From the NCBI GenBank assembly GCA_041690135.1, contig JAWLHY010000018.1:32001-96000 (forward strand): a stretch of DNA of 64,000 nucleotides. Reading direction: 5' to 3'. The position numbers and the translations under genes are program-made. Origin of the DNA: Armatimonadota bacterium. Lineage in GTDB: Bacteria; Armatimonadota; SYMT01. This document shows positions 10,309 to 21,639 of the stretch, piece by piece. A model generated the notes under the pieces. That model saw only the letters and a list, made by a program, of their open reading frames with translations. It ran no database searches and was not told where the DNA came from. Numbering within the stretch: the first letter of the stretch is position 1; every line of letters starts with the position of its first letter.

Positions 10309-13300
10309 TTACCGCCGCCCTTTCCGCGGTACGGTGCCGTTGCCCAGGAGTTGGACGTTGGCCCGAGAGCGTCGCGGGTCGGTGCTGGTAATGCGGAGCG
10401 TGCTCCGCGCCCGTCCTCTGGCGGCCGGCGTGAAGCTGACCGTTACTTCCACGAAGTCCTTCGGCTGCAGCAGGATGCTGACGGCCTGCGGGGCCTCTAC
10501 GTTGAACGGAGCTTCGACCGGGGTGTAGGCCACCATCAGCGGCGTGGTGCCGATGTTGGTCAGCCGCACGGTGCGGGTGGCGCTGCCGCCCACGAGCACA
10601 TTCGCGAAGTTCACCTTGGTCCGGGAGACTTTCAGCCGTCCGGAGCCCGGTGTTACGCCGGATGCTTCATTGGACGGGCTCGAGTCACCGCCCGCGTTGA
10701 ACGCAATCACCCGGAAGGTTTGCACGGCGCTGGTTTCCAGTCCGCCCACCTTCGTAGAGGTGACATTGGCACCCGTGGTGTTGACCACCGCGAACTGGTT
10801 CTCGCCGATCTTGCGTTCGACGCGGAACCCGGTCTCGTCGTTGCTGTTGTCCTGCCACTCCACCCGGAGGATGTCCGAACCCGCTACGAGCACGGTCACG
10901 TTGCTCGGCGCGGCCGGCGGGTTAGGCAGGGTCTCACCCTGGGCCTCACCCGACGGTGAACTGTCTCCGGTGGGGTTGCGGGCGATCACCCGGTAGATGT
11001 AGGTCGTACCCGGCACCAGGTTGGTGTCGGTGAAGGTAGTTACCCCCTCGCCCACCGATCCGGCCTGCGTAAAGGCCCCCTGTGCCGTGCGTCGCTGGAT
11101 GACGTAGCTGCTCTCCCGCTGGCTGTCGGACCACGTTACGACCAGTTGCGTCCGACCCGCGGGTGCTGCGGGCGTCGAGACAGTCACTCCGGCCGGGGTG
11201 CTCGGAAGATCGGTGAGGGTCGTGGCATTTGCTTCGTTGGAAGCAGGCCCGTCACCGCCCGTATTCTTCGCCCGGACGCGGTAGTAGTAGGTCGTACTTG
11301 CCGCGAGGCCGTTGTCGAAGTGCTCCGTGGCGTTGGCCGGCGCGGAGCCTACCGTCTGGAAGTTGCCCCCTTCCGGCTTCCGTTCGATAGTGAAGCCGGT
11401 CTCGCCGGTGACTGCGTCCGTCCAGTTCAGACGGATACTGCTGCTGCTAACCGCCGTGGCCTGCAGGCCGGTCGGGGACGTGCCCGGAGGGTTCGGTAGG
11501 GTTGTGCCGCTTGCCTCGGCCGTGGCCGCGGAATCGCCGCCTGCGTTCGTTGCGACCACCACGTAGAAGTAAGTGGTCTGCGGAGACAGGTTCTGATCCG
11601 TGTAGGTCGTGATGTTCGTCCCGACCGTGGCGTTCGGCTGGGCTCCGAAATTCTCGCCGGCAGTGCGACGGTAGATTTCGAAGCCGTCCTCGTTGTTGCT
11701 GTTGTCCTGCCAGGTCAGCACCAGGGAAGTGCTTCCCGCGGCGGCAGCGGCTACCGATCCGTTCGTGGGGACGGTCACCAGCAAGTTGCTGGGCGCGGCC
11801 GGCGGGTTCGGCAGCGTGGTGACGTTCGCCTCATTGCTGAAGCTGGAGACACCGCCATCGTTTGCCGCCTGGACGCGGTAGACATAGCCGGTGTTGGCGA
11901 TGAGGCCGCTCGTGTCCGTGAACTGCTCCAAATCGGCTCCCACGGTGCCCGCGAGGCTGAACGTGCCGCCGGAGGCGAGACGACGCTCGATCCGGAAGGA
12001 GCTTTCGTTGTCGGAGTTATCCTGCCAGGTGAGCAGCACGCTCGTCTGGCCCGTCGCCACGGCCGTCAGGCTGGACGGCGCACTCGGCGGGTTGGGATGC
12101 GTCCGGCCGCTGGTGCTGACGGCAGTCGAGTCGCCGCCGATGTTGCTGGCCACGAGCCGATAGTAGTAGATCGTGTCTACATTCAGGCCGTTGTCCAGGT
12201 AGCTCGTAGTGTTGGCGCCCAGAGTTGCGAGCGAGATCCAGGTTGTCTGGTTCTGCGACCGCTCCAGCTTGAAGCTGGTCTCGTCCGTGGAGTTGTCCTG
12301 CCACGTGAGCCGAATGCTGTTCTGCGACTGGCCCGTGGCGGTGAACAAGGACGGCGCCGCCGGAGCGTTCGGGTGGGTGGTGGCGGTGGCGGTATTGCTC
12401 GGGTTGGAGCTGCCGCCGCCGTTCCGCGCCCGCACCTGATAGCTATAGGCTGTGTTGGCGGTCAGGCCGCTGTCGCTGTAGCTGGTGCTGTTCGCAGCGA
12501 CGGTGTCGTGCTCGACGAACGCGCCCATGTCGTTGCGGCGGAAGATCACGAACTCGTCTTCGTTGCTGCTGCTGTCGGACCAGCTCAGCCAGATCTCCGT
12601 CTGTGACTGGGCCGTGGCGGTGAGGCCGGACGGCGCTCCCGGCGGGTTGGGAAGCGTAGTCGCTTGGGCGGTGTTGCTGTAGGCGGAGTCGCCGCCGCCG
12701 TTGGCTGCCCGCACCCGGTAGATGTAGAGCGTGTTGGAGACCAGCCCCTGGTCCGTATGCGTGACCTGGGTGTCCGCGCCCGGCGCCGTGCCCTTAGTGG
12801 CCACCTGCCGGAAGGTCACCCCGTCCGTGGAGCGCTCGATCTTGAACAGCGTCTCGTTGTCCGACTTGTCCGTCCAGGCGAGCAGGATGGACGTGGTCGA
12901 CTGCGCGGTCGCTGTCAAGGTCTCCGGAGCTTGCGGCGCATCCGGCGGCACCACCACCGTGGCTTCATTGGTCGAGCCCGTGGAGAGATCGCCGTTGGTG
13001 TTGATAGCGACGATCACATAGGTGTAGGTCTTGCCCGCCATCACGGTGTCGTCCGTGTAGGTGGTGCCGCTGGCGGCGGCGCGGTCCGTCAGGATAAGGA
13101 ACGAATTACTTCCCTCCTTCCGCATAATGCGGTTCCCGGAAGGGTTCGCGCCGTTATTGTCCGTCCAGGCCAATTCCACCCGGCGCGGGTTGGTCTGCAG
13201 CGAAGCCGTCAGCCCGGAAGGGTTCGCGGGGAAGGTGAGGTCGCTGGCAGGTCCGACCCACGCGGATACGTTGTTGTTCCGGGCACGGACGCGGAAGACG

Positions 13301-16300
13301 TAGCTCGTGTTTGGGTTCAGACCGGTTGCGTCGAACGTTACCGTCTGGCCCGTTCCGGCGGACACCTGATTGACCGTGCGAGTCGAGGCAGTCCCGCCCT
13401 GCGGGGTTACTTCTACTTCGAAGCCGGTTTCGTTGGAGGCGTTGTCCGTCCAGGTCAGGCGCACGACGCTGGCGCTGGTGGCGTTGGCGTCGAGGTTGGA
13501 CGGGGCGGCCGGAGGCGTCTGCAGCGTGGTGCCGCCCGCTTCACGGCTGGGAGCACTGTCGCCGCCGTTGTTGAACGCATACACGCGGTAGGTGTAGGTC
13601 GTGTTCTCCGTCAGGCCGGTGTCCTGGTAGGAGTTGCTGTTTACCGGCAGACTGGTCGCACCTGCGAGCGGAGCAAAGGTGCCGTTGATGCCGATCTTCC
13701 GCTCGATCCGGAAGCCTTCTTCGTTGTTGGCCGTATCGGTCCACGCCAGGTTGATCTGGCTGGAGGAGATCACGGTGGCGGTCAGGCCTTCCGGTCCGGT
13801 CGGCGGGACCTTCAGGGTGGTGGCGCATTGCGTATTGGAGACGTCGCCGTTGCCGCTACCGTTGGTGCCGATCACTCGGTAGCAGTATTGCGTGTTCTCC
13901 GTGAGCCCGGTGTCGGTGTAGGCGTTGACGCCCGCCTGCGCCGTACCGATCTGCGTCCAGCCGCTCATCCCGTCCGGCGAACGTTCGACGCGGAACTGGG
14001 TGGGCGCGAAGCTGTTGTCGGTCCAGGTCAGGTCGATCTCCGTGCGACCGCGGCGAGGATTGCCGGTGGTCGGCACGGTAGCAAGCAGGTTGGTGGCCGC
14101 TGCAGGCAGCGTTAGCCGGTTGCCGGTAATGGCAGCCGAGTTGCCGCCGGGGTTGGTGGCCATCACCCGGTAGAAGTAGGTGCGGTTCCCGTTCAGGTTC
14201 GTGCCACCGTTGTTGTCGTCGACGGTGGTCGTGCCCGCCGGAAGGGTGGCGACGAGCGTCCAGGTGGACTGGTCGGTGGACCGCTCCACGCGGTGCGCGG
14301 AAGTAGAGCCGGGTGCGTTCGCGTCGGTGAAGGCGATCCGCAGATTGGTCGTCGGGGCGATATTGGTGATCAGGAGAGCCTGCGGCACCGACGGCAGCGT
14401 CCAGGCGCTGTCCACGTTGCTGTTCGCCGGCGAGTCGCCTCCACCATCGCAGCCGGCCGGAGCCGTGTTGAACGCGCGGACCCGGAAGAAGTACTGCGTG
14501 TTCGGCGTGAGGCCCGTCACCTGGAACGACTTCTGTCCGCCGGCAGGCGTGTTCCCGTCGTTGGCCACGAACGTCCAGTTGCTGCTGCCATCGGGAGATC
14601 GCTCGATCCGGAAGTTCGAGGTAGTCCCAGCGGGATTGTTGTCGTCCCAGGTGAGGTCGATCACCGTTTGAGAGGTGGTGGCCGCATCGAGGTTGCTGGC
14701 ATTAACGGCCTGGGTCAGCACGCAGTCGGTGTTGCTGGGTTGCGCGTCGCTATCCCCCACCCCGTTGTTCGCGAATGCGATGACGCGGAAGTAGAAGACC
14801 GTGTTCCGCTGCAGGCCGTTGATCGTGGTTGTTCTCAGGCCGGTGGCCGGAACCTCTGCGGGTTGGGACGTGTAGGTGGTCGTCAGGGTCCAGGGGCCGC
14901 CCGCCGCGAGAGCCTGTTCGATCTTGAAGCCGGTCTCGTCCGTGCTGTTGTCCGTCCATTCGAGGTTGGCGGCGTCCGGAGGCGTCAACGTTACGCTCAG
15001 GTCGCTGGCATCCTGCGGCGGATTCGGCAGCGTGGTCGCGGAAACGGTCGATGACAGCGGCCCATCGCCACTCTGGTTGTAGGCGCGAACCTGATAGTAG
15101 TAGGTGGTGTTGGCGGCCCGCCCGCCGTCAGTGAAGCTGTAGACTTTATCGAACGGAGCCGTGGTGTCGGTCAGGTCCGGTCCCTGGGTATCGGTTCGGA
15201 TCAGGTTAAATGGCCCGCCCGGTGCGGTGGCTCGATAGAGCTTGAAACCGACCTGGTCTTGCGCGTTGTAGGTCCAGGTCAGGTTGACCTGCGAGTTGGT
15301 AGCCGTAGGAGCATTGAAGACTGGCTGAACCGTAGGTGCGGTGGGTAGGGTCGTGCCCTGGACCGGACCCAGGATCGCCGAGTCGCCCGCCGCATTGTTT
15401 GCGCGGATCTGGTACTCGTAAGTCGTATTCGGCGCCAATCCGGCACCCGCGTTATCATCGGTGAACGTCCGTGCACCGGTGCCGGGCCCGTTTGTCGCAT
15501 CCGAGAGGATATTTGCGATCTGCATAAACGAGGTCGCCGGCGTGGTGATCCGACGCCGCTCGATGATGAAACTCGCCTCGTTGTTGCTCGCGTCGTTCCA
15601 GTCCAGTTTCAACCGCTGCGTATCGATCGGCGTCACTACCAGGTTCGTCGGCGCCGCCGGGGGTTCCGGCAGGGTGGTAACGGTCAACTGGTTGGAATAG
15701 GGTCCGTAGAAGGTCGTGTTGACATTCGCGACAACCGCCCGGTTGAAAGGTCGGACCCGGTAAGTGTAGGTCGTGGTTGCGACGAGCCCAGAGTTCGTGT
15801 GGGTGACGGTATTGGCAGTGTTGATCGTGGCGACAACCTGCCAGGGGGAGGCGCTGCTCTGGTCACCCAGCTTTCGTTCCACTTCGAATCCGCCTTCGTT
15901 ATCACTGTTGTCAGTCCACGCCAGGCTGATGAAGTGGTTTCCGCCGTTGTTACCGATCGCGGTGGTGATCAGATTCGAAGGCGCGAAGGGGGGGGAGTGA
16001 TGCTGGGCGACAAACACATCCGCCACCGGCATGAGTTCATACCGGCCGTTGAGGGGACCCTGCTGACCGTTTCGGTAGGTAAAGAAGCTTGTGGGCAGAT
16101 CAAGAGACGCCGTGGTGCCGGCGATGTAAGCCTGCCCATTGCTGTCCACGTCGATTCCCAGGGCGAGATCGTCGGGAGGACCGCTCCAACCTGCGCTGCC
16201 GCCGAAGTAGGTGGAATACTCGAACTCCGCACCGTTCGGCCGCAGCTTAGCCAGGAAACAGTCGACACCTCCACGCAGGTCGTTCTGCGAAGGATTGACC

Positions 16301-18522
16301 AGTGGGAACGAAGGGAAGCTGGAGGTGGTGGTCCCGCAGACGTATGCCTGCCCCGAGGGGCTCACCGCGATGTCATTGCCGACGTCGGTCCCATTTCCAC
16401 CCAGGTAGGTGGAGTAGATCCATTCGTTGCCAGATGTGTTCAACTTAGCAACGAATGCGTCGCTGGCGCCGCCCTGGAAGCTGGCGGTATATGCGGGGAT
16501 CGATGCCGCCGTCGGCGCCACCGTCGGGAAGTCGCCGGATGCGGTGTAACCCGTTACATAGGCCTCGCCCTGCGGGTTGATGGCGATGGACCGGCAAGCA
16601 TCGTCACCGCCGCCACCCAGGTAGGTTCCATACACGGGCCGTCCTGCCGTGTCGAATTTCGCTACGAAGCCATCCATGCGGCCGGTGTCGGGTGCGTGGG
16701 CCGGTTGGGGACCGTTCTGAGCGCCAGGAGGGAAAGAGGCGAACAGATCCAGTGATGCGGTTCCGCCCGCGACGAAAGTGTTTCCCTGGTCGTCCACGGC
16801 GATTGCAACCGCCTGGTCGTCGCCATAGGGCGTGGCAAACGCTCGGCCATTCCAGGTCTGCGTTCCGGGGCTGGAATACGGGGCGCGGGGAACGATGTAG
16901 TTGAAGTTGATCGGCGCAGTGACCGGCAGTCCGCTTTCGCTTCCGGACCCACCAAAGTACGTGTAGTAGTTGAAGGCGGAACCGGAGGCGTCCAGGCTGA
17001 CCAGGAAAATATCCGACGACCCCGCCAACGTGCTTTGGAAAGGCTGTCCGTCGGTGCTGAAGACCGGCAGGTTGGTGGAGTTGGTGATGCCCGCGATGTG
17101 AACGTTCTGCGTCCCGTCCACCGCGATAGCGCGACCGATGTCGTTGCCGGACCCACCGAGGTAGGTTGAGAAGACGAGCTGGCTGGCGCCGCTTCGACTC
17201 GTGTCGAGCTTGACCGCAAACCCATCGCGCCCCCCCTGCTGGTTTTGGACGGCAACCTGCAAGGGCCAATAAATGGACTCCGTGCAGCCCGTTACGTAGA
17301 TAAAGGGATGATCGACTGAGGAACTGGGCGAGGTGGTAAGTGCGAGGCCGTAGTCGTCGTTCTCCGCTCCCAGGTAGGTGGAATAGAGCAGAGGACTCGT
17401 CCCCGTGGCGTTGAACTTGGTGACGAATGCGTCGTAGCTGCTTTCGTCGAAGTAGGTGAAGTTGTTGTCCGGGTTCTCGGTGGTGTTGAAGTTGCTCCGG
17501 GATGAGTTATTGATCCGGTCCGGATCTCCCTGGAACTGGTTCACCAGCGGCCATTCAGTCAAAACCGATACCGGATCCCGGCTCGGTTCATTGTTTGCAT
17601 CCTGGAAGAACGAGCCGGTGTAGCCCGTAATGTATGCATTTCGCGACGCATCGACCTGCACGTCAAAGGCGTAGTCGTCCGCGCTCCCGCCAATATAGGT
17701 CGAATAGCGGATGACGGGGTCGATGACCAGTTGCTGGGACTCGTCGTAGGGTCCTACTTTGAACCCCACCTGGTTGTCGGCCAGCAGTTGGTATTCGGCT
17801 TCGACCGGCTTGCGCTCGCCCTTCACCACCTGGTAAGCGATGGGGGCCTTTTGCCTAACCTCACCCAACCCGGTGTTCAGTACCAGTTCCCCGCTCTCAT
17901 CAACGCGGAGTTCCTTTTGTCCCTCATACTCCAGGCGCACGGTCTTGGGGCTGACACCAGGATCCAGAATGAAGTCATGCTCCAGTTCCTGCTGGTTGCC
18001 GTAGTAGACGAGGTCCACGCCCTTCCACACGTCTTCACACAGTACGCGCCCGAAACTGGGGACGTCGGTCACCCAGTTCTCCGGTTTATTACCGATGAAG
18101 TAGTTGCTAAGGCCCAGTTGGTCTCCGTCGTGTCGGATGTTGGCCTTGGGATTGCCACCCACCAGGCTCATCTTGAGACGGGAGACCGGCGCACCTTCGG
18201 GCAGCTTCTGTGCCTTTTGACCCTGTTTTGCCGATTCGGGGAGACGGGCCAGGGCGAGGTATGAGGCCGTCGGGGTGATGTAGAAGTTGTAACCCGCCCC
18301 GCGGGACAGGAACTTCACCTGCCCGTCGGTCTGGCCGCGGTTGGCTTCGAAGATGAGCGGCAAGCGGCTCATCGCCAGTTTCGCGTCGGCCACGTCCTTT
18401 CCGGAGCGAGAGTTGAACTCCATCAGGCGGATCGCCCCCGTCAGCGCGCCCGCCAGCACTACGGTGCCTAGCAGCGCGCCCAGCCATCGCGGGGTCGCTA
18501 TCGCGGCTCTCACACTACGCAT
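10309..18522 (-). CDS. Giant secreted protein: SBBP beta-propeller repeats, about 18 fibronectin-III domains, C-terminal ASH/choice-of-anchor-D-like Ig domain
   Basis: Same N-terminal architecture as the neighbour (FEANRGQTD, VIDPVIRYSTYIGG), 18 FN3 units counted by eye, C-terminal VNF..V.VG.SATRTV.LTN.G..PL..V.FTP..G, RBS GGAGAGG. Confidence 0.9.
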   Translation of the reverse strand: MRSVRAAIATPRWLGALLGTVVLAGALTGAIRLMEFNSRSGKDVADAKLAMSRLPLIFEANRGQTDGQVKFLSRGAGYNFYITPTASYLALARLPESAKQGQKAQKLPEGAPVSRLKMSLVGGNPKANIRHDGDQLGLSNYFIGNKPENWVTDVPSFGRVLCEDVWKGVDLVYYGNQQELEHDFILDPGVSPKTVRLEYEGQKELRVDESGELVLNTGLGEVRQKAPIAYQVVKGERKPVEAEYQLLADNQVGFKVGPYDESQQLVIDPVIRYSTYIGGSADDYAFDVQVDASRNAYITGYTGSFFQDANNEPSRDPVSVLTEWPLVNQFQGDPDRINNSSRSNFNTTENPDNNFTYFDESSYDAFVTKFNATGTSPLLYSTYLGAENDDYGLALTTSPSSSVDHPFIYVTGCTESIYWPLQVAVQNQQGGRDGFAVKLDTSRSGASQLVFSTYLGGSGNDIGRAIAVDGTQNVHIAGITNSTNLPVFSTDGQPFQSTLAGSSDIFLVSLDASGSAFNYYTYFGGSGSESGLPVTAPINFNYIVPRAPYSSPGTQTWNGRAFATPYGDDQAVAIAVDDQGNTFVAGGTASLDLFASFPPGAQNGPQPAHAPDTGRMDGFVAKFDTAGRPVYGTYLGGGGDDACRSIAINPQGEAYVTGYTASGDFPTVAPTAASIPAYTASFQGGASDAFVAKLNTSGNEWIYSTYLGGNGTDVGNDIAVSPSGQAYVCGTTTSSFPSFPLVNPSQNDLRGGVDCFLAKLRPNGAEFEYSTYFGGSAGWSGPPDDLALGIDVDSNGQAYIAGTTASLDLPTSFFTYRNGQQGPLNGRYELMPVADVFVAQHHSPPFAPSNLITTAIGNNGGNHFISLAWTDNSDNEGGFEVERKLGDQSSASPWQVVATINTANTVTHTNSGLVATTTYTYRVRPFNRAVVANVNTTFYGPYSNQLTVTTLPEPPAAPTNLVVTPIDTQRLKLDWNDASNNEASFIIERRRITTPATSFMQIANILSDATNGPGTGARTFTDDNAGAGLAPNTTYEYQIRANNAAGDSAILGPVQGTTLPTAPTVQPVFNAPTATNSQVNLTWTYNAQDQVGFKLYRATAPGGPFNLIRTDTQGPDLTDTTAPFDKVYSFTDGGRAANTTYYYQVRAYNQSGDGPLSSTVSATTLPNPPQDASDLSVTLTPPDAANLEWTDNSTDETGFKIEQALAAGGPWTLTTTYTSQPAEVPATGLRTTTINGLQRNTVFYFRVIAFANNGVGDSDAQPSNTDCVLTQAVNASNLDAATTSQTVIDLTWDDNNPAGTTSNFRIERSPDGSSNWTFVANDGNTPAGGQKSFQVTGLTPNTQYFFRVRAFNTAPAGCDGGGDSPANSNVDSAWTLPSVPQALLITNIAPTTNLRIAFTDANAPGSTSAHRVERSTDQSTWTLVATLPAGTTTVDDNNGGTNLNGNRTYFYRVMATNPGGNSAAITGNRLTLPAAATNLLATVPTTGNPRRGRTEIDLTWTDNSFAPTQFRVERSPDGMSGWTQIGTAQAGVNAYTDTGLTENTQYCYRVIGTNGSGNGDVSNTQCATTLKVPPTGPEGLTATVISSSQINLAWTDTANNEEGFRIERKIGINGTFAPLAGATSLPVNSNSYQDTGLTENTTYTYRVYAFNNGGDSAPSREAGGTTLQTPPAAPSNLDANATSASVVRLTWTDNASNETGFEVEVTPQGGTASTRTVNQVSAGTGQTVTFDATGLNPNTSYVFRVRARNNNVSAWVGPASDLTFPANPSGLTASLQTNPRRVELAWTDNNGANPSGNRIMRKEGSNSFLILTDRAAASGTTYTDDTVMAGKTYTYVIVAINTNGDLSTGSTNEATVVVPPDAPQAPETLTATAQSTTSILLAWTDKSDNETLFKIERSTDGVTFRQVATKGTAPGADTQVTHTDQGLVSNTLYIYRVRAANGGGDSAYSNTAQATTLPNPPGAPSGLTATAQSQTEIWLSWSDSSSNEDEFVIFRRNDMGAFVEHDTVAANSTSYSDSGLTANTAYSYQVRARNGGGSSNPSNTATATTHPNAPAAPSLFTATGQSQNSIRLTWQDNSTDETSFKLERSQNQTTWISLATLGANTTSYLDNGLNVDTIYYYRLVASNIGGDSTAVSTSGRTHPNPPSAPSSLTAVATGQTSVLLTWQDNSDNESSFRIERRLASGGTFSLAGTVGADLEQFTDTSGLIANTGYVYRVQAANDGGVSSFSNEANVTTLPNPPAAPSNLLVTVPTNGSVAAAAAGSTSLVLTWQDNSNNEDGFEIYRRTAGENFGAQPNATVGTNITTYTDQNLSPQTTYFYVVVATNAGGDSAATAEASGTTLPNPPGTSPTGLQATAVSSSSIRLNWTDAVTGETGFTIERKPEGGNFQTVGSAPANATEHFDNGLAASTTYYYRVRAKNTGGDGPASNEANATTLTDLPSTPAGVTVSTPAAPAGRTQLVVTWSDSQRESSYVIQRRTAQGAFTQAGSVGEGVTTFTDTNLVPGTTYIYRVIARNPTGDSSPSGEAQGETLPNPPAAPSNVTVLVAGSDILRVEWQDNSNDETGFRVERKIGENQFAVVNTTGANVTSTKVGGLETSAVQTFRVIAFNAGGDSSPSNEASGVTPGSGRLKVSRTKVNFANVLVGGSATRTVRLTNIGTTPLMVAYTPVEAPFNVEAPQAVSILLQPKDFVEVTVSFTPAARGRARSTLRITSTDPRRSRANVQLLGNGTVPRKGRR

Positions 18523-19177: not shown

Positions 19178-20122
19178 ATGGTGGACATCGGCGGGGAATC
19201 CGGCGCCGCACGGGCGCAAGATCCAGGAGCGCGGCTGCGGGCACAGCAGCGGGCGGCGACACTGTCGCTGGGTTCGAACGTGTTTCTGGTAGCGGTGAAG
19301 ATCGCTGCGGGGGTGGCGTCGGGCGCGATCAGTGTTCTGGCAGAGGGGATTCAGTCGACGGTGGACGTGCTCGCATCGGGCCTGATTCTGTTCACCGTGC
19401 GGGCGGCGAGTGCCCCTCCCGACCGGAGCCATCCCTACGGTCACGGTAAGTTTGAGAATCTGGCTTCGCTGGGCCAGATGCTGCTGATTCTGGGCACGGT
19501 AGCCTATCTTCTGTCGGCAGCCTGGCAGCGGTGGCAAGAGCCGGTGATGCCGCGGGTGGACTGGGGTGTGGCGGCGCTGGTCATTGCCCTGGTAGTCAAC
19601 ACGCTGGTTTCGCGGCGACTGATGAAAGTGGCCGCAGAAACCGGGTCCCAGGCGCTGGAGGCCGAAGCGGCGCACCTTCGTACCGACATGCTGGCTTGCG
19701 TCGGCGTGCTTGGAGGTTTGCTCGCCGTGGCGATCACGGGTGAGCCGCGCTTTGATCCCGCCGTGGCCGCGGTGATGACGGTAGTGGCTGCGTTGGCGGC
19801 CGTATCCCTATTGAGAGAGACGCTGCGTCCGCTGCTGGATGAGAGCCTGCCGGAGGAAGAGGAGCGCCAGGTGCGGGCGGTGCTGGAAGGCGACGGGCGG
19901 GTGTTGGGGTATCACCGTCTCCGCACGCGGCGCGCCGGCGCGCGGCGCTTGGTGGATGTTCACGTGTTGCTTGATGACGATCTCAGTTTTGCGCAGGCGC
20001 ATGCGCAGGCCGAGGAGGTGGAGCAGGCTATTCGCTCGGTGCTGCCGAACGCGGATGTCATCGTGCATGCGGAACCGTACGAAGCGGAACTGCAACATCA
20101 GGAGGAGGCACATCGTGGGTGA
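19178..20122 (+). CDS. Cation diffusion facilitator (FieF/YiiP-like) metal transporter
   Basis: PPD..HPYGHGKFE, HLRTD, C-terminal LRTR.AG..VDVH..AH..VHAEP. Confidence 0.93.
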   Translation: MVDIGGESGAARAQDPGARLRAQQRAATLSLGSNVFLVAVKIAAGVASGAISVLAEGIQSTVDVLASGLILFTVRAASAPPDRSHPYGHGKFENLASLGQMLLILGTVAYLLSAAWQRWQEPVMPRVDWGVAALVIALVVNTLVSRRLMKVAAETGSQALEAEAAHLRTDMLACVGVLGGLLAVAITGEPRFDPAVAAVMTVVAALAAVSLLRETLRPLLDESLPEEEERQVRAVLEGDGRVLGYHRLRTRRAGARRLVDVHVLLDDDLSFAQAHAQAEEVEQAIRSVLPNADVIVHAEPYEAELQHQEEAHRG

Positions 20123-20483
20123 GCGGGTGCGCTACACCTTCTTCTATGACGAGGATTGTGGCATGTGAGCGCGGTTTGCGCGCTGGTTGGCGCGCGCCGC
20201 AGGCTCTCGGGTTAGGGTCAGCCCACTGGGGGGACCGGAGGCCGACCGGGTTCTTGCCGGTATTGATTCGGTCGAGCGTTACCGCCAGGCCTGGGGCACG
20301 GACGGCACGCGCCTGTACGCCGCCGACCGCTCCGTCTGGGAGGCACTTTACCGGGTTCCTGGCGGCTGGTTGCTGCGCTCCCTTCGTTTTATCCCCGGAT
20401 TTACCTGGGTCAGCCCAAGAGTCTACCGCTGGGTAGCGGAACACCGCTCCCCCGCATGTCGGCTCAAGAACAGCGCGGAATGA
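20115..20483 (+). CDS. DCC1/DUF393-family thiol-disulfide oxidoreductase, probable selenoprotein (CxxU, TGA at 20166-20168), 122 aa
   Basis: RBS GGAGGAGG at 20101-20108 and GTG at 20115. Reads MGERVRYTFFYDEDCGM-TGA-ARFARWLARAAG in frame into track ORF 20187-20483, which ends in YRWVAEHR. Matches the DCC family YDxxCxxC and YxxxAxxR motifs. SECIS-like hairpin follows. Confidence 0.88.
20169..20200 (+). promoter_or_regulatory. Putative bacterial SECIS element
   Basis: gcgg/ccgc lower stem, U-G pair, UU bulge, gcgcgc/gcgcgc upper stem, U-G closing pair, apical loop GGUU (20185-20188) beginning 16 nt after the UGA. Confidence 0.75.
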
Positions 20484-20571
20484 AGGGCCGGTTTCAGTTC
20501 CTCCCGTGCTGTGGGTTTTCTCGCACCAGGAGCCTGAACTGCGAATCGGTCGACCGTATTCCCTTCCTCCT

Positions 20572-20610
20572 TCGCGTCTCTCCGTGTTCTACTCCGTGTC
20601 TCCGTTGTGA
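20572..20610. repeat. Short imperfect ctccgtgt-type tandem repeat
   Basis: ctctccgtgttctactccgtgtctccgttgtga in the intergenic region. Confidence 0.45.
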
Positions 20611-20772
20611 GGTTCGGAGTCGGTTCGGGCATCTGCACAGACGGTTCCGGTCGTGGCACTGCCGACAATAGGCCGGGGTAATCCCCACCCGGCGCGACAA
20701 CTGTTGCGCTCCGGTGTATCATGATCCTCCACGTCCAATTGCCGGGCCTCCGGCGAGCCAGGTTTAGACGCG

Positions 20773-21639
20773 ATGCGCATTATCGACTGCTTCGGCAACG
20801 GCCGCCCCGTGTTCTCCTTCGAGTTCTTCCCTCCGAAGACGGAGGAGGGGCTCCACAACCTCTATAGCACCATCGGGTATCTTGCGGAGTTGAACCCCTC
20901 CTTCGTTTCCGTGACCTACGGGGCGGGCGGCAGCACGCGCGATCTTACGGTGGATCTTGTGGGCCGGATCAAGGCGGAGATCGGGTTGGAGACGATGGCG
21001 CATCTCACCTGCGTGGGGCACAGCGCGGAGGAGATTGCCGGGGTGTTGGACCGGTTGCAGGGCAACGGAATCGAAAACGTCCTCGCCCTGCGCGGAGATC
21101 CGCCCCGGGGTGAAACCCAGTTCGTGCGCCCGGAGAACGGTTTCGGGTACGCCCAGGAGTTGGTGCGGTTCATCCGCTCGCGCTACGACTTCTGCGTGGC
21201 GGGTGCATGCTACCCGGAACGTCACCCGGAAGCCGCGGATGCCGAAACCGACCTGGCCCACCTGAAAGAGAAGGTCGACGCCGGCGCGGAGTTCCTGGTC
21301 AGCCAGCTCTTTTTCGATCCGGCCGTGTACTTCCGTTTCGTGGAGAGGGCTCGCGCCATCGGCATCACCGTGCCCATCCTGCCGGGCATCATGCCGGTTA
21401 CCAACGTAAGCCAGTTGGAGCGGTTCACCACGATGTGTGGCGCGAGCATTCCGGAAGAGTTGCGCGACCGGCTGGATCGGGTGCGGAATGACGAGCAGGC
21501 GGTCGTGTGCGAAGGAATCTCCTGGGCTACCCGGCAGTGCCGCGAATTGCTGGAAGGCGGCGCGCCCGGCATCCACTTCTACACCCTTAACCGTTCGCTC
21601 TCAACCCGAATGGTGTACCTGAACCTTCAGCGGTCCTGA
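20773..21639 (+). CDS. metF: 5,10-methylenetetrahydrofolate reductase
   Basis: SFEFFPPKT, FVSVTYGAGGST, AHLTC, LALRGDPP, YPE.HPE, SQLFFD, HFYTLN. Confidence 0.97.
   Translation: MRIIDCFGNGRPVFSFEFFPPKTEEGLHNLYSTIGYLAELNPSFVSVTYGAGGSTRDLTVDLVGRIKAEIGLETMAHLTCVGHSAEEIAGVLDRLQGNGIENVLALRGDPPRGETQFVRPENGFGYAQELVRFIRSRYDFCVAGACYPERHPEAADAETDLAHLKEKVDAGAEFLVSQLFFDPAVYFRFVERARAIGITVPILPGIMPVTNVSQLERFTTMCGASIPEELRDRLDRVRNDEQAVVCEGISWATRQCRELLEGGAPGIHFYTLNRSLSTRMVYLNLQRS

Follow-up and report, generated by a model that had tools for sequence, protein, structure and literature searches.

In selenocysteine insertion sequences (SECIS) of the Escherichia coli fdhF type, a hairpin located directly 3' of the UGA carries a bulged U and an apical G-U about 20 nucleotides (nt) from that codon. 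The DCC1-like family (DUF393, YuxK; PF04134), whose proteins carry a DxxCxxC motif, has to our knowledge no bacterial member with a defined substrate. Here, we describe a gene of this family in which the second motif cysteine is replaced by an in-frame TGA. The gene lies at positions 20115-20483 of a 64,000-nt stretch of DNA from an Armatimonadota bacterium (GenBank assembly GCA_041690135.1, contig JAWLHY010000018.1, positions 32,001 to 96,000 of the forward strand), hereafter referred to as the window, and very probably encodes a true selenoprotein, namely a DCC1-like CxxU protein with selenocysteine (Sec, U) in place of the second motif Cys.

Arabidopsis DCC1, a thiol-disulfide oxidoreductase with a DxxCxxC motif, has been described as reducing a subunit of complex I (PMC7598583). 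Known and predicted prokaryotic selenoprotein families have been compiled, together with their domain identifiers, in Table 1 of a 2026 review (PMC13188914). That table lists UxxC and UxxU forms within one family of peroxiredoxin (Prx)-like thiol:disulfide oxidoreductases, and its metal-associated entries encompass an SO_0444-family Cu/Zn efflux transporter (UxC), an E1-E2 cation ATPase (UxxC), a mercuric transport protein (C/SxxU) and forms of the CopZ family (PMC13188914, Table 1).

A DCC1-like gene with TGA at the catalytic position

The gene and its signals, all on the forward strand, are as follows.

20115-20483, +: DCC1-like candidate selenoprotein gene, 122 codons plus stop, with the motif D12-x-x-C15-x-x-U18 when TGA is translated as U
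20100-20108, +: Shine-Dalgarno-like sequence AGGAGGAGG, read from the sequence, with a 6-nt spacer to the GTG start at 20115-20117
20157-20159, +: TGT codon of Cys15, which opens the CxxU redox motif and occupies the N-cap position of helix alpha-1
20166-20168, +: in-frame TGA, proposed Sec18, aligned to the invariant second Cys of DxxCxxC
20481-20483, +: TGA stop codon that ends the DCC gene, seen directly in the sequence
20187-20483, +: open reading frame (ORF) of 98 aa from a TTG, the call expected under genetic code table 11, which lacks the redox motif and has its 'start' within the hairpin loop described below

Codons 11-18 of the DCC frame read Y-D-E-D-C-G-M-TGA, and the in-frame TGA is followed by 104 sense codons, which end at the TGA at 20481-20483 with a C-terminus of the DCC type, Y-R-W-V-A-E-H-R. 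The original prediction, which had been made from the letters of the window, described the GTG start with a strong ribosome-binding site (RBS), an 8-nt overlap with the stop of an upstream cation diffusion facilitator (CDF) gene, the YDEDCGM-TGA stretch, the 104 codons and the YRWVAEHR end, all of which were confirmed. It had also expected gene callers to truncate the gene, as is indeed the case, since table-11 calling divides it into an ORF that ends at the TGA at 20166-20168 and the 98-aa TTG ORF, and truncated public calls are found among its closest relatives. The read check proposed for positions 20166-20168 likewise returned the TGA. Read-level cover came from three public runs with small shares, leaving 20244-20700 uncovered; no RNA run was among those listed, and one 151-nt contig of run X1 spans the TGA and is identical to the window over 20085-20235 (0 differences, TGA included).

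With the TGA read as Cys, the protein matches PF04134 (DCC1-like) with 50.9 bits against a cut-off of 27.8, over residues 10-113 and profile positions 2-109 of 113; the match therefore spans the TGA, and the membership of the DCC1/DUF393 family proposed for the read-through product is upheld. In a family alignment of 122 sequences, no columns other than those of residues 15 and 18 are invariant for Cys, and the TGA occupies column 18, that is, the position of a catalytic Cys, while D12 is conserved in at least 90% of the aligned sequences. A homologous-protein search with the window's protein gave 3 matches, no model of NCBIfam matches this protein or two of its TGA-bearing relatives, and a sequence search turned up no solved structure of a DCC protein.

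The AlphaFold2 model built from the 122 sequences (pLDDT 90.2, pTM 0.82) places strand beta1 (7-11), C15-x-x-U18 at the start of helix alpha1 (16-32) and strand beta2 (33-37) in that order, and this predicted arrangement is the active-site geometry of thioredoxin-fold oxidoreductases. The best structural neighbours of the model are all of the thioredoxin fold (thioredoxins, glutaredoxins, NrdH and N-domains of glutathione S-transferases), although the matches are weak (Foldseek E >= 0.05, VIA Z <= 5.5). Structural rows for ArsD and CopG (VIA Z 3.4-3.6) tie with many unrelated thioredoxin-fold rows and were not used as evidence.

We propose that the product, 122 residues long, is a thiol/selenol oxidoreductase with the thioredoxin fold, a member of the DCC1-like family (DUF393, PF04134) with the active site D-E-D-C-G-M-U. 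The UGA at 20166-20168 would be decoded as Sec by the SelA/SelB/SelD/tRNA-Sec system, with SelB recruited by the hairpin directly past the UGA, whose apical G-U loop lies about 20 nt downstream. Cys15 would be exposed at the helix N-cap, and a Cys15-Sec18 selenylsulfide would be formed and reduced as the enzyme acts on a protein or small-molecule disulfide, the chemistry being most likely that of a thioredoxin-type couple. Rdx selenoproteins (SelW/T/H) are arranged in this way.

Selenocysteine machinery and other selenoprotein genes

The source genome (G000; 9.1 Mb in 25 contigs, 65.1% G+C, with the window on contig C18) contains the Sec machinery for which the original prediction had proposed a search. 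The matches for selA (566.6 bits), selB (383.6 bits), selD (369.6 bits) and the tRNA-Sec gene selC (67.2 bits) are all over the curated cut-offs, and ARAGORN calls the latter as tRNA-SeC with the anticodon tca. The genes for SelA, a Sec-containing SelD (V-K-C-G-G-TGA-A-S-K) and tRNA-Sec are clustered at G000:C1:1149453-1152359, followed by a tRNA-Ala gene, and selB is located on C8.

A genome scan for in-frame TGA codons combined with Pfam revealed eight further genes with a domain across the TGA, and with selD the number of other Pfam-verifiable selenoprotein genes comes to at least nine. These eight include three CMD/AhpD-like genes (CxxU), two rhodanese genes (CxU), one of them fused to a Na+/H+ exchanger, two AhpC-TSA/redoxin genes (UxxC) and one Rdx/SelW-like gene (CxxU; L066, PF10262 79.7 bits, TIGR02174 64 bits). 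NCBIfam families of the (seleno)protein type match three of them, the AhpD-like (TIGR01926) and SelW-like (TIGR02174) models over cut-off and the rhodanese model (NF041203) below it. The scan is crude and noisy: among the 17 candidates picked by eye, eight have a domain across the TGA, eight have none and one is a sigma-70 ORF with Pfam domains before the TGA only. The DCC gene itself was missed by the scan filter because its frame stays open upstream into the CDF gene that overlaps it. Only one DCC gene was found in the source genome, which therefore has no Cys-form back-up.

The same scan drew attention to other loci. The exchanger-rhodanese fusion (L063, G000:C5:442469-444079, - strand) joins a Na+/H+ exchanger (PF00999, 150.7 bits) to a C-terminal rhodanese domain (PF00581, 51.5 bits) with the active site C-T-TGA-P, and is a candidate for a transporter-linked selenoprotein. 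Two loci with signal-peptide-like N-termini carry an in-frame TGA beside a Cys, L061 (G000:C14:43329-44426, - strand) reading G-G-H-C-TGA and L073 (G000:C1:180320-180853, - strand) reading L-C-Y-V-TGA. Neither matches Pfam or NCBIfam, and the hairpin loop of L061, AGUU at about +28-31, resembles the SECIS elements of the AhpD-like genes of this genome; both may be further unlisted selenoproteins.

Recurrence of TGA in relatives of the same class

The class to which the source organism belongs, identical in extent to its order, is represented by 8 species genomes with 9 DCC genes. Five of these nine genes carry six in-frame stops between them, each of which is a TGA located at one of the two motif Cys columns. 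The TGA-bearing forms are the following.

G000, the window's gene: C-x-x-TGA
G007, orthologue: TGA-x-x-TGA, otherwise intact
G006 gene a (L033, G006:C219), orthologue: TGA-x-x-C, with a +1 frameshift some 50 codons past the motif
G006 gene b and G002 gene b, second subfamily: C-G-F-TGA-R-R-S-V-A-W, intact

Orthologues with CxxC represent both subfamilies (G001, G059, G005, G027, P0005 at 63% identity, P0006 and P0007), and the N-terminal Y-T-F-F-Y-D-E-D-C-G of the window's protein is identical to that of the Cys form P0005. This is the Sec/Cys pairing that had been sought, some homologues keeping TGA at the motif Cys and others having Cys. Of all single-base changes that could create a stop in four Cys-form orthologues, only about 5.2% strike the two motif Cys codons; the chance that six of six stops would do so is about 2e-8, or about 7e-6 for four independent events. 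A control pseudogene from another family of the phylum (G344; L075, G344:C2:36577-37494) has kept both Cys codons and carries one TGA and one TAA elsewhere.

Downstream of the TGA, G000 and G007 share 47% amino-acid identity over 98 codons, with a rough ratio of nonsynonymous to synonymous divergence (dN/dS) of 0.39, and the similarly rough value for G006 gene b and G002 gene b is 0.43 over 104 codons, which suggests that the frames after the TGA are constrained between TGA-bearing genes. The frameshift in G006 gene a may be an assembly indel in a metagenome-assembled genome (MAG) of 610 contigs or may mark a pseudogene, and because of it this gene was not counted as a secure Sec gene. As for the Sec machinery of the relatives, selA is over cut-off in all five tested, G002, G006 and G007 each have a selD that contains an in-frame TGA (a partial copy at a contig end in G007), tRNA-Sec is over cut-off in G002 and G006, and selB is over cut-off in G001, G002 and G005, with a partial match only (104-576) in G006.

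Wider distribution and public gene calls

In a PF04134 survey of a 401-genome sample of the phylum, a DCC gene was found in 189 genomes; of its 207 matches 150 were listed, and the other 57 could include further TGA forms. A survey with the window's protein as the query gave 22 matches, all listed, with stops only in G000 and G007. A locus search with a 3-sequence alignment recovered only the G001 and G007 contigs and one Actinomycetes MAG with CxxC, and a metagenome scan with the same alignment gave 96 pattern matches and no relative.

Among 1.84 billion cluster representatives, 283 matches were found at E <= 0.001. The nine closest 50%-cluster representatives (E <= 1e-10) comprise five full-length CxxC proteins and four whose starts lie just past the motif, between query residues 28 and 33; among these late-starting calls, P0011 is the verified G007 gene. 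This shape is found in none of the other 141 matches listed. The same kind of truncation is seen in P0002, whose identity to the window's protein is 87%, and P0008, P0010, P0011 and P0012 are further analogous truncated public calls; P0002, P0008, P0010 and P0012/P0155 are known from protein calls rather than from their DNA. P0155, which is found on 15 contigs, has 108 aa and bears the source name 'DCC family protein'.

DCC domains were also observed within frames or proteins of about 440-650 residues in genus g54, in other Armatimonadota families and elsewhere (P0032, P0074 and P0111 have about 617-627 aa), which suggests that these long proteins are fused forms.

The hairpin downstream of the TGA

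The original prediction had placed a hairpin with a bulged UU and an apical GGUU right after the TGA; this hairpin is present and SECIS-like, with the following parts.

20167-20206, +: SECIS-like hairpin (RNAfold), beginning at the G of the TGA, with a 4-bp and 5-bp lower stem
20178-20184 / 20189-20195, +: upper stem of 7 bp, with a UU bulge at 20176-20177 and the apical loop GGUU at 20185-20188

Counted from the U of the UGA, the GGUU loop lies at +20 to +23. Starting from the TGA, 44 nt fold with a minimum free energy (MFE) of -26.4 kcal/mol (RNAfold), and equally stable folds are formed by 52 of the window's 25,584 segments of 44 nt (0.20%), by 0.59% of 3,029 GC-matched segments and after 2 of the 1,393 TGA triplets in the window, the DCC TGA included. 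In the other nine selenoprotein genes of the genome, the apical loops lie at +19 to +39, a G-U is found in the loop in eight of the nine MFE folds, and the energies are weaker (-13.7 to -18.9 kcal/mol). By loop position and G-U content, the DCC hairpin fits the pattern of the genome's other SECIS elements.

A hairpin was also observed in a DCC gene of the CxxC form (L025, G059:C114), where a fold of -26.3 kcal/mol follows the second Cys codon as a possible 'proto-SECIS' made of Ala/Arg codons. The helix after the motif is rich in Ala and Arg, and its GCG and CGC codons are self-complementary, from which it may be speculated that the family acquires Sec easily. A bolder proposal, which we consider rather unlikely, is that a single Armatimonadota class forms a hot-spot of repeated Cys-to-Sec change, at the second, at both and possibly at the first motif position, eased by such proto-SECIS elements, and that the CDF-coupled Sec form serves as a selenolate-based redox/metal partner.

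Alternative explanations

A number of observations weigh against the selenoprotein interpretation. Dinucleotide shuffles of 71 nt give a z of only -0.39, 70 of 200 folding as well, so that the stability of the hairpin is largely due to local G+C and to Ala/Arg-codon composition. At the same position, Cys-form controls fold comparably (G059, CxxC, -26.3 kcal/mol with the loop GGCUG at +20-24; L044, -21.7; G034, -21.0), and because the Cys-form orthologue G059 is as stable at the same place, the hairpin is not discriminating evidence; of the original claim, the presence of the element stands, while its stability does not set it apart. In the other DCC genes with a TGA the hairpin is ordinary (-12.4 to -22.2 kcal/mol), some of the loops lack a G-U, and an Rfam scan of the whole window at gathering thresholds gave 0 matches. 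Among the relatives, every TGA form belongs to one small class, so that their origins are not fully independent events, with dS approaching saturation (1.3-1.9) the dN/dS values are only approximate, and the only UxxC example would be lost if G006 gene a were a pseudogene. In G007, the best tRNA-Sec match reaches 46.4 bits against a cut-off of 47, and selB was not recovered from this 88%-complete genome, in which only EF-Tu-like N-terminal matches were found. A metagenome search for the pattern Y-D-E-D-C-G-x-C, with Cys or TGA allowed at both motif positions, gave TGA in 0 of 13 loci, 11 of which are in-frame DCC-like CxxC genes and two of which are not DCC-like downstream. Finally, the matches of the predicted fold are weak, Foldseek giving none at E <= 0.001 and VIA a best Z of 5.5.

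One rival explanation is a recent nonsense pseudogene, in which a TGC or TGT had turned into TGA while the downstream frame was still undecayed. This would need one base change, open frames persist by chance in DNA of 65% G+C, the hairpin does not discriminate, and G006 gene a joins a motif-Cys TGA with a frameshift. Nevertheless, decay would hardly have placed all six in-frame stops of five genes on a motif Cys as TGA, where about 5% are expected per stop, and the genuine pseudogene G344 shows another pattern. Although G000 and G007 have the TGA column in common, they show the identity and dN/dS given above downstream of it; P0002 is truncated at the same place; the N-terminus is still that of the Cys form P0005; and the gene is the only DCC gene in its genome. 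On this balance, a pseudogene appears improbable. If the TGA were instead a true stop, a shorter protein without the motif would be made from TTG 20187 or from a GTG near 20211, the 17-codon ORF being a leader or a remnant, and this is exactly how gene callers treat P0002, P0008 and P0010-P0012, with P0155 even named as a DCC family protein at its reduced length. However, no Shine-Dalgarno-like sequence precedes 20187, which itself lies within the hairpin loop, the strong RBS and the 8-nt coupling serve GTG 20115, the 17 upstream codons hold the invariant motif of the family, and the product from 20187 would, according to the predicted fold, have neither strand beta1 nor the initial third of helix alpha1, which makes a true stop very improbable. 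An error of sequencing or assembly could be invoked on account of the thin read support, a single 151-nt contig of depth 2 from run X1 that possibly derives from the same sample as the assembly, but that contig is identical across the TGA and the feature recurs in four other genes from three other assemblies. A different genetic code, with TGA read as Trp or Gly, is excluded, since TGA serves as a normal stop here as well, ending both the CDF and the DCC genes. Error and altered code are together barely credible. The selenoprotein interpretation is backed by the family match, the Sec machinery, the TGA- and Cys-bearing homologues, the matching contig and the truncated public calls, in agreement with the original prediction of a CxxU selenoprotein of the DCC1/DUF393 family.

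The CDF neighbour and surrounding genes

The genes and sites adjoining the DCC gene are as follows.

19178-20122, +: CDF metal-efflux gene, 314 aa (PF01545, 136.3 bits; PF16916, 82.3 bits)
20503-20525, +: terminator-like stem-loop with a T-rich tail, 20 nt past the DCC stop (consensus scan, weak, with 3 sites against 1.6 expected)

The CDF protein consists of a cation-efflux transmembrane domain and a C-terminal ZT_dimer domain and matches NCBIfam TIGR01297 with 212 bits; its metal specificity was not indicated by FieF, MntE and other NCBIfam equivalog models, all of which are below their cut-offs. The CDF stop (TGA, 20120-20122) falls within the first codons of the DCC gene, and through this 8-nt overlap translation of the DCC gene is probably coupled to that of the CDF gene. 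The terminator-like site suggests a two-gene CDF-DCC transcription unit.

The CDF-DCC pairing is kept at three of four orthologous loci, namely in G000, in G001 (a Cys form, with the genes abutting) and in G006 (with a 50-nt gap), and the DCC gene of G007 is adjoined by a divergent SpoIID-domain gene and an ABC permease rather than by a CDF gene. The conservation of the pairing and the precedent of Sec in or beside metal exporters make a functional tie plausible, whether as redox control of the exporter or as selenolate/thiolate handling of a soft metal, although we hold such a tie only tentatively, with the balance tilted against it. As for the Se-dependent metal/thiol-stress module that had been proposed, it would go beyond what the conserved pairing conveys.

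Further downstream, a methylenetetrahydrofolate reductase gene (20773-21639, + strand; PF02219, 339.4 bits) follows the DCC gene after a 289-nt spacer, and with a promoter-like site at 20694-20722 before it, it looks like a separate transcription unit. On the other side, a 2,737-aa ORF (10309-18522, - strand) shows in translation a long array of repeats of about 90 residues with T-W-x-D-N-S-x-N-E motifs, and is probably a secreted giant protein of the fibronectin-type-III-like kind. ARAGORN found 0 tRNAs in the window.

Implications

DCC, DUF393 and PF04134 are absent from the main texts of the 2026 review (PMC13188914), of deep-Sep (PMC12013277) and of BSepDB (PMC13326102), supplements not being covered, and also from the main texts of the Global Ocean Sampling (GOS), Sargasso and Olavius selenoproteome papers, a 2016 ISME survey and a 2022 review; YuxK is absent from the main texts of most of the same papers. 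The supplements, that is, the BSepDB list of 111 families and the deep-Sep tables, could hold a DCC entry. In full-text literature outside subscription journals, no paper combines 'selenoprotein' with 'DUF393' or 'oxidoreductase DCC' with 'selenocysteine'. The earlier remark that DCC stands outside the classical selenoproteins agrees with the main texts searched and with NCBIfam, and we regard the DCC1-like protein as the founder of a selenoprotein family that is new, with a mechanism of a familiar kind, although an earlier mention is possible.

If this is true, a widespread family of ill-defined bacterial function (DCC1/DUF393/YuxK) joins the selenoprotein families, and the selenoproteome of a poorly studied phylum is extended. 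Sec at the catalytic position would be strong evidence that DxxCxxC is a working redox centre in bacteria and would offer a handle on the function of the family. The lineage provides a natural series of CxxC, CxxU and UxxU in one small protein, suited to the study of the benefit of Sec at each motif position, as well as a test case for a SECIS arising from pre-existing coding sequence. Annotation pipelines would need a family model, as public calls of 90-108 aa omit the active site, and the conserved CDF coupling leads to a testable hypothesis that joins selenium, thiol redox and metal efflux.

Comparison with known systems

The layout of the DCC hairpin is the same as that of the fdhF-type SECIS, whereas its stem is longer and more G+C-rich and no Rfam match was found in the window. 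The Cys forms of the DCC1-like/DUF393/YuxK family resemble the window's protein in their match to the profile model, in the N-terminal DxxCxxC register, in a length of about 120 aa, in the C-terminal Y..A..R and in the predicted thioredoxin-like core; they differ from it in that the second Cys of the window's protein is encoded by TGA and its gene is coupled to a CDF exporter.

The Rdx proteins with CxxU (SelW/SelT/SelH-like), of which the Rdx/SelW-like gene L066 is an example in the same genome, are also small thioredoxin-fold proteins with Sec as the second residue of a CxxC-type motif at the start of helix 1. In contrast to them, the window's protein matches no Rdx model of Pfam or NCBIfam; an Asp specific to DCC proteins stands three positions ahead of its first Cys, and its C-terminal extension is helical.

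The Prx-like selenoproteins, as listed in the review table, share a Sec motif in a protein of the thioredoxin superfamily, and their single- and double-Sec forms parallel the CxxU of G000 and the UxxU of G007; however, they belong to PF00578 with Sec usually at the first position, whereas the DCC proteins belong to PF04134 with Sec mostly at the second. The metal-associated selenoproteins of the same table provide a precedent for Sec in or beside proteins of metal export and handling, although in those entries Sec resides in the transporter or the metal-binding domain, whereas at the locus described here the CDF protein is free of Sec and its partner is the DCC protein.

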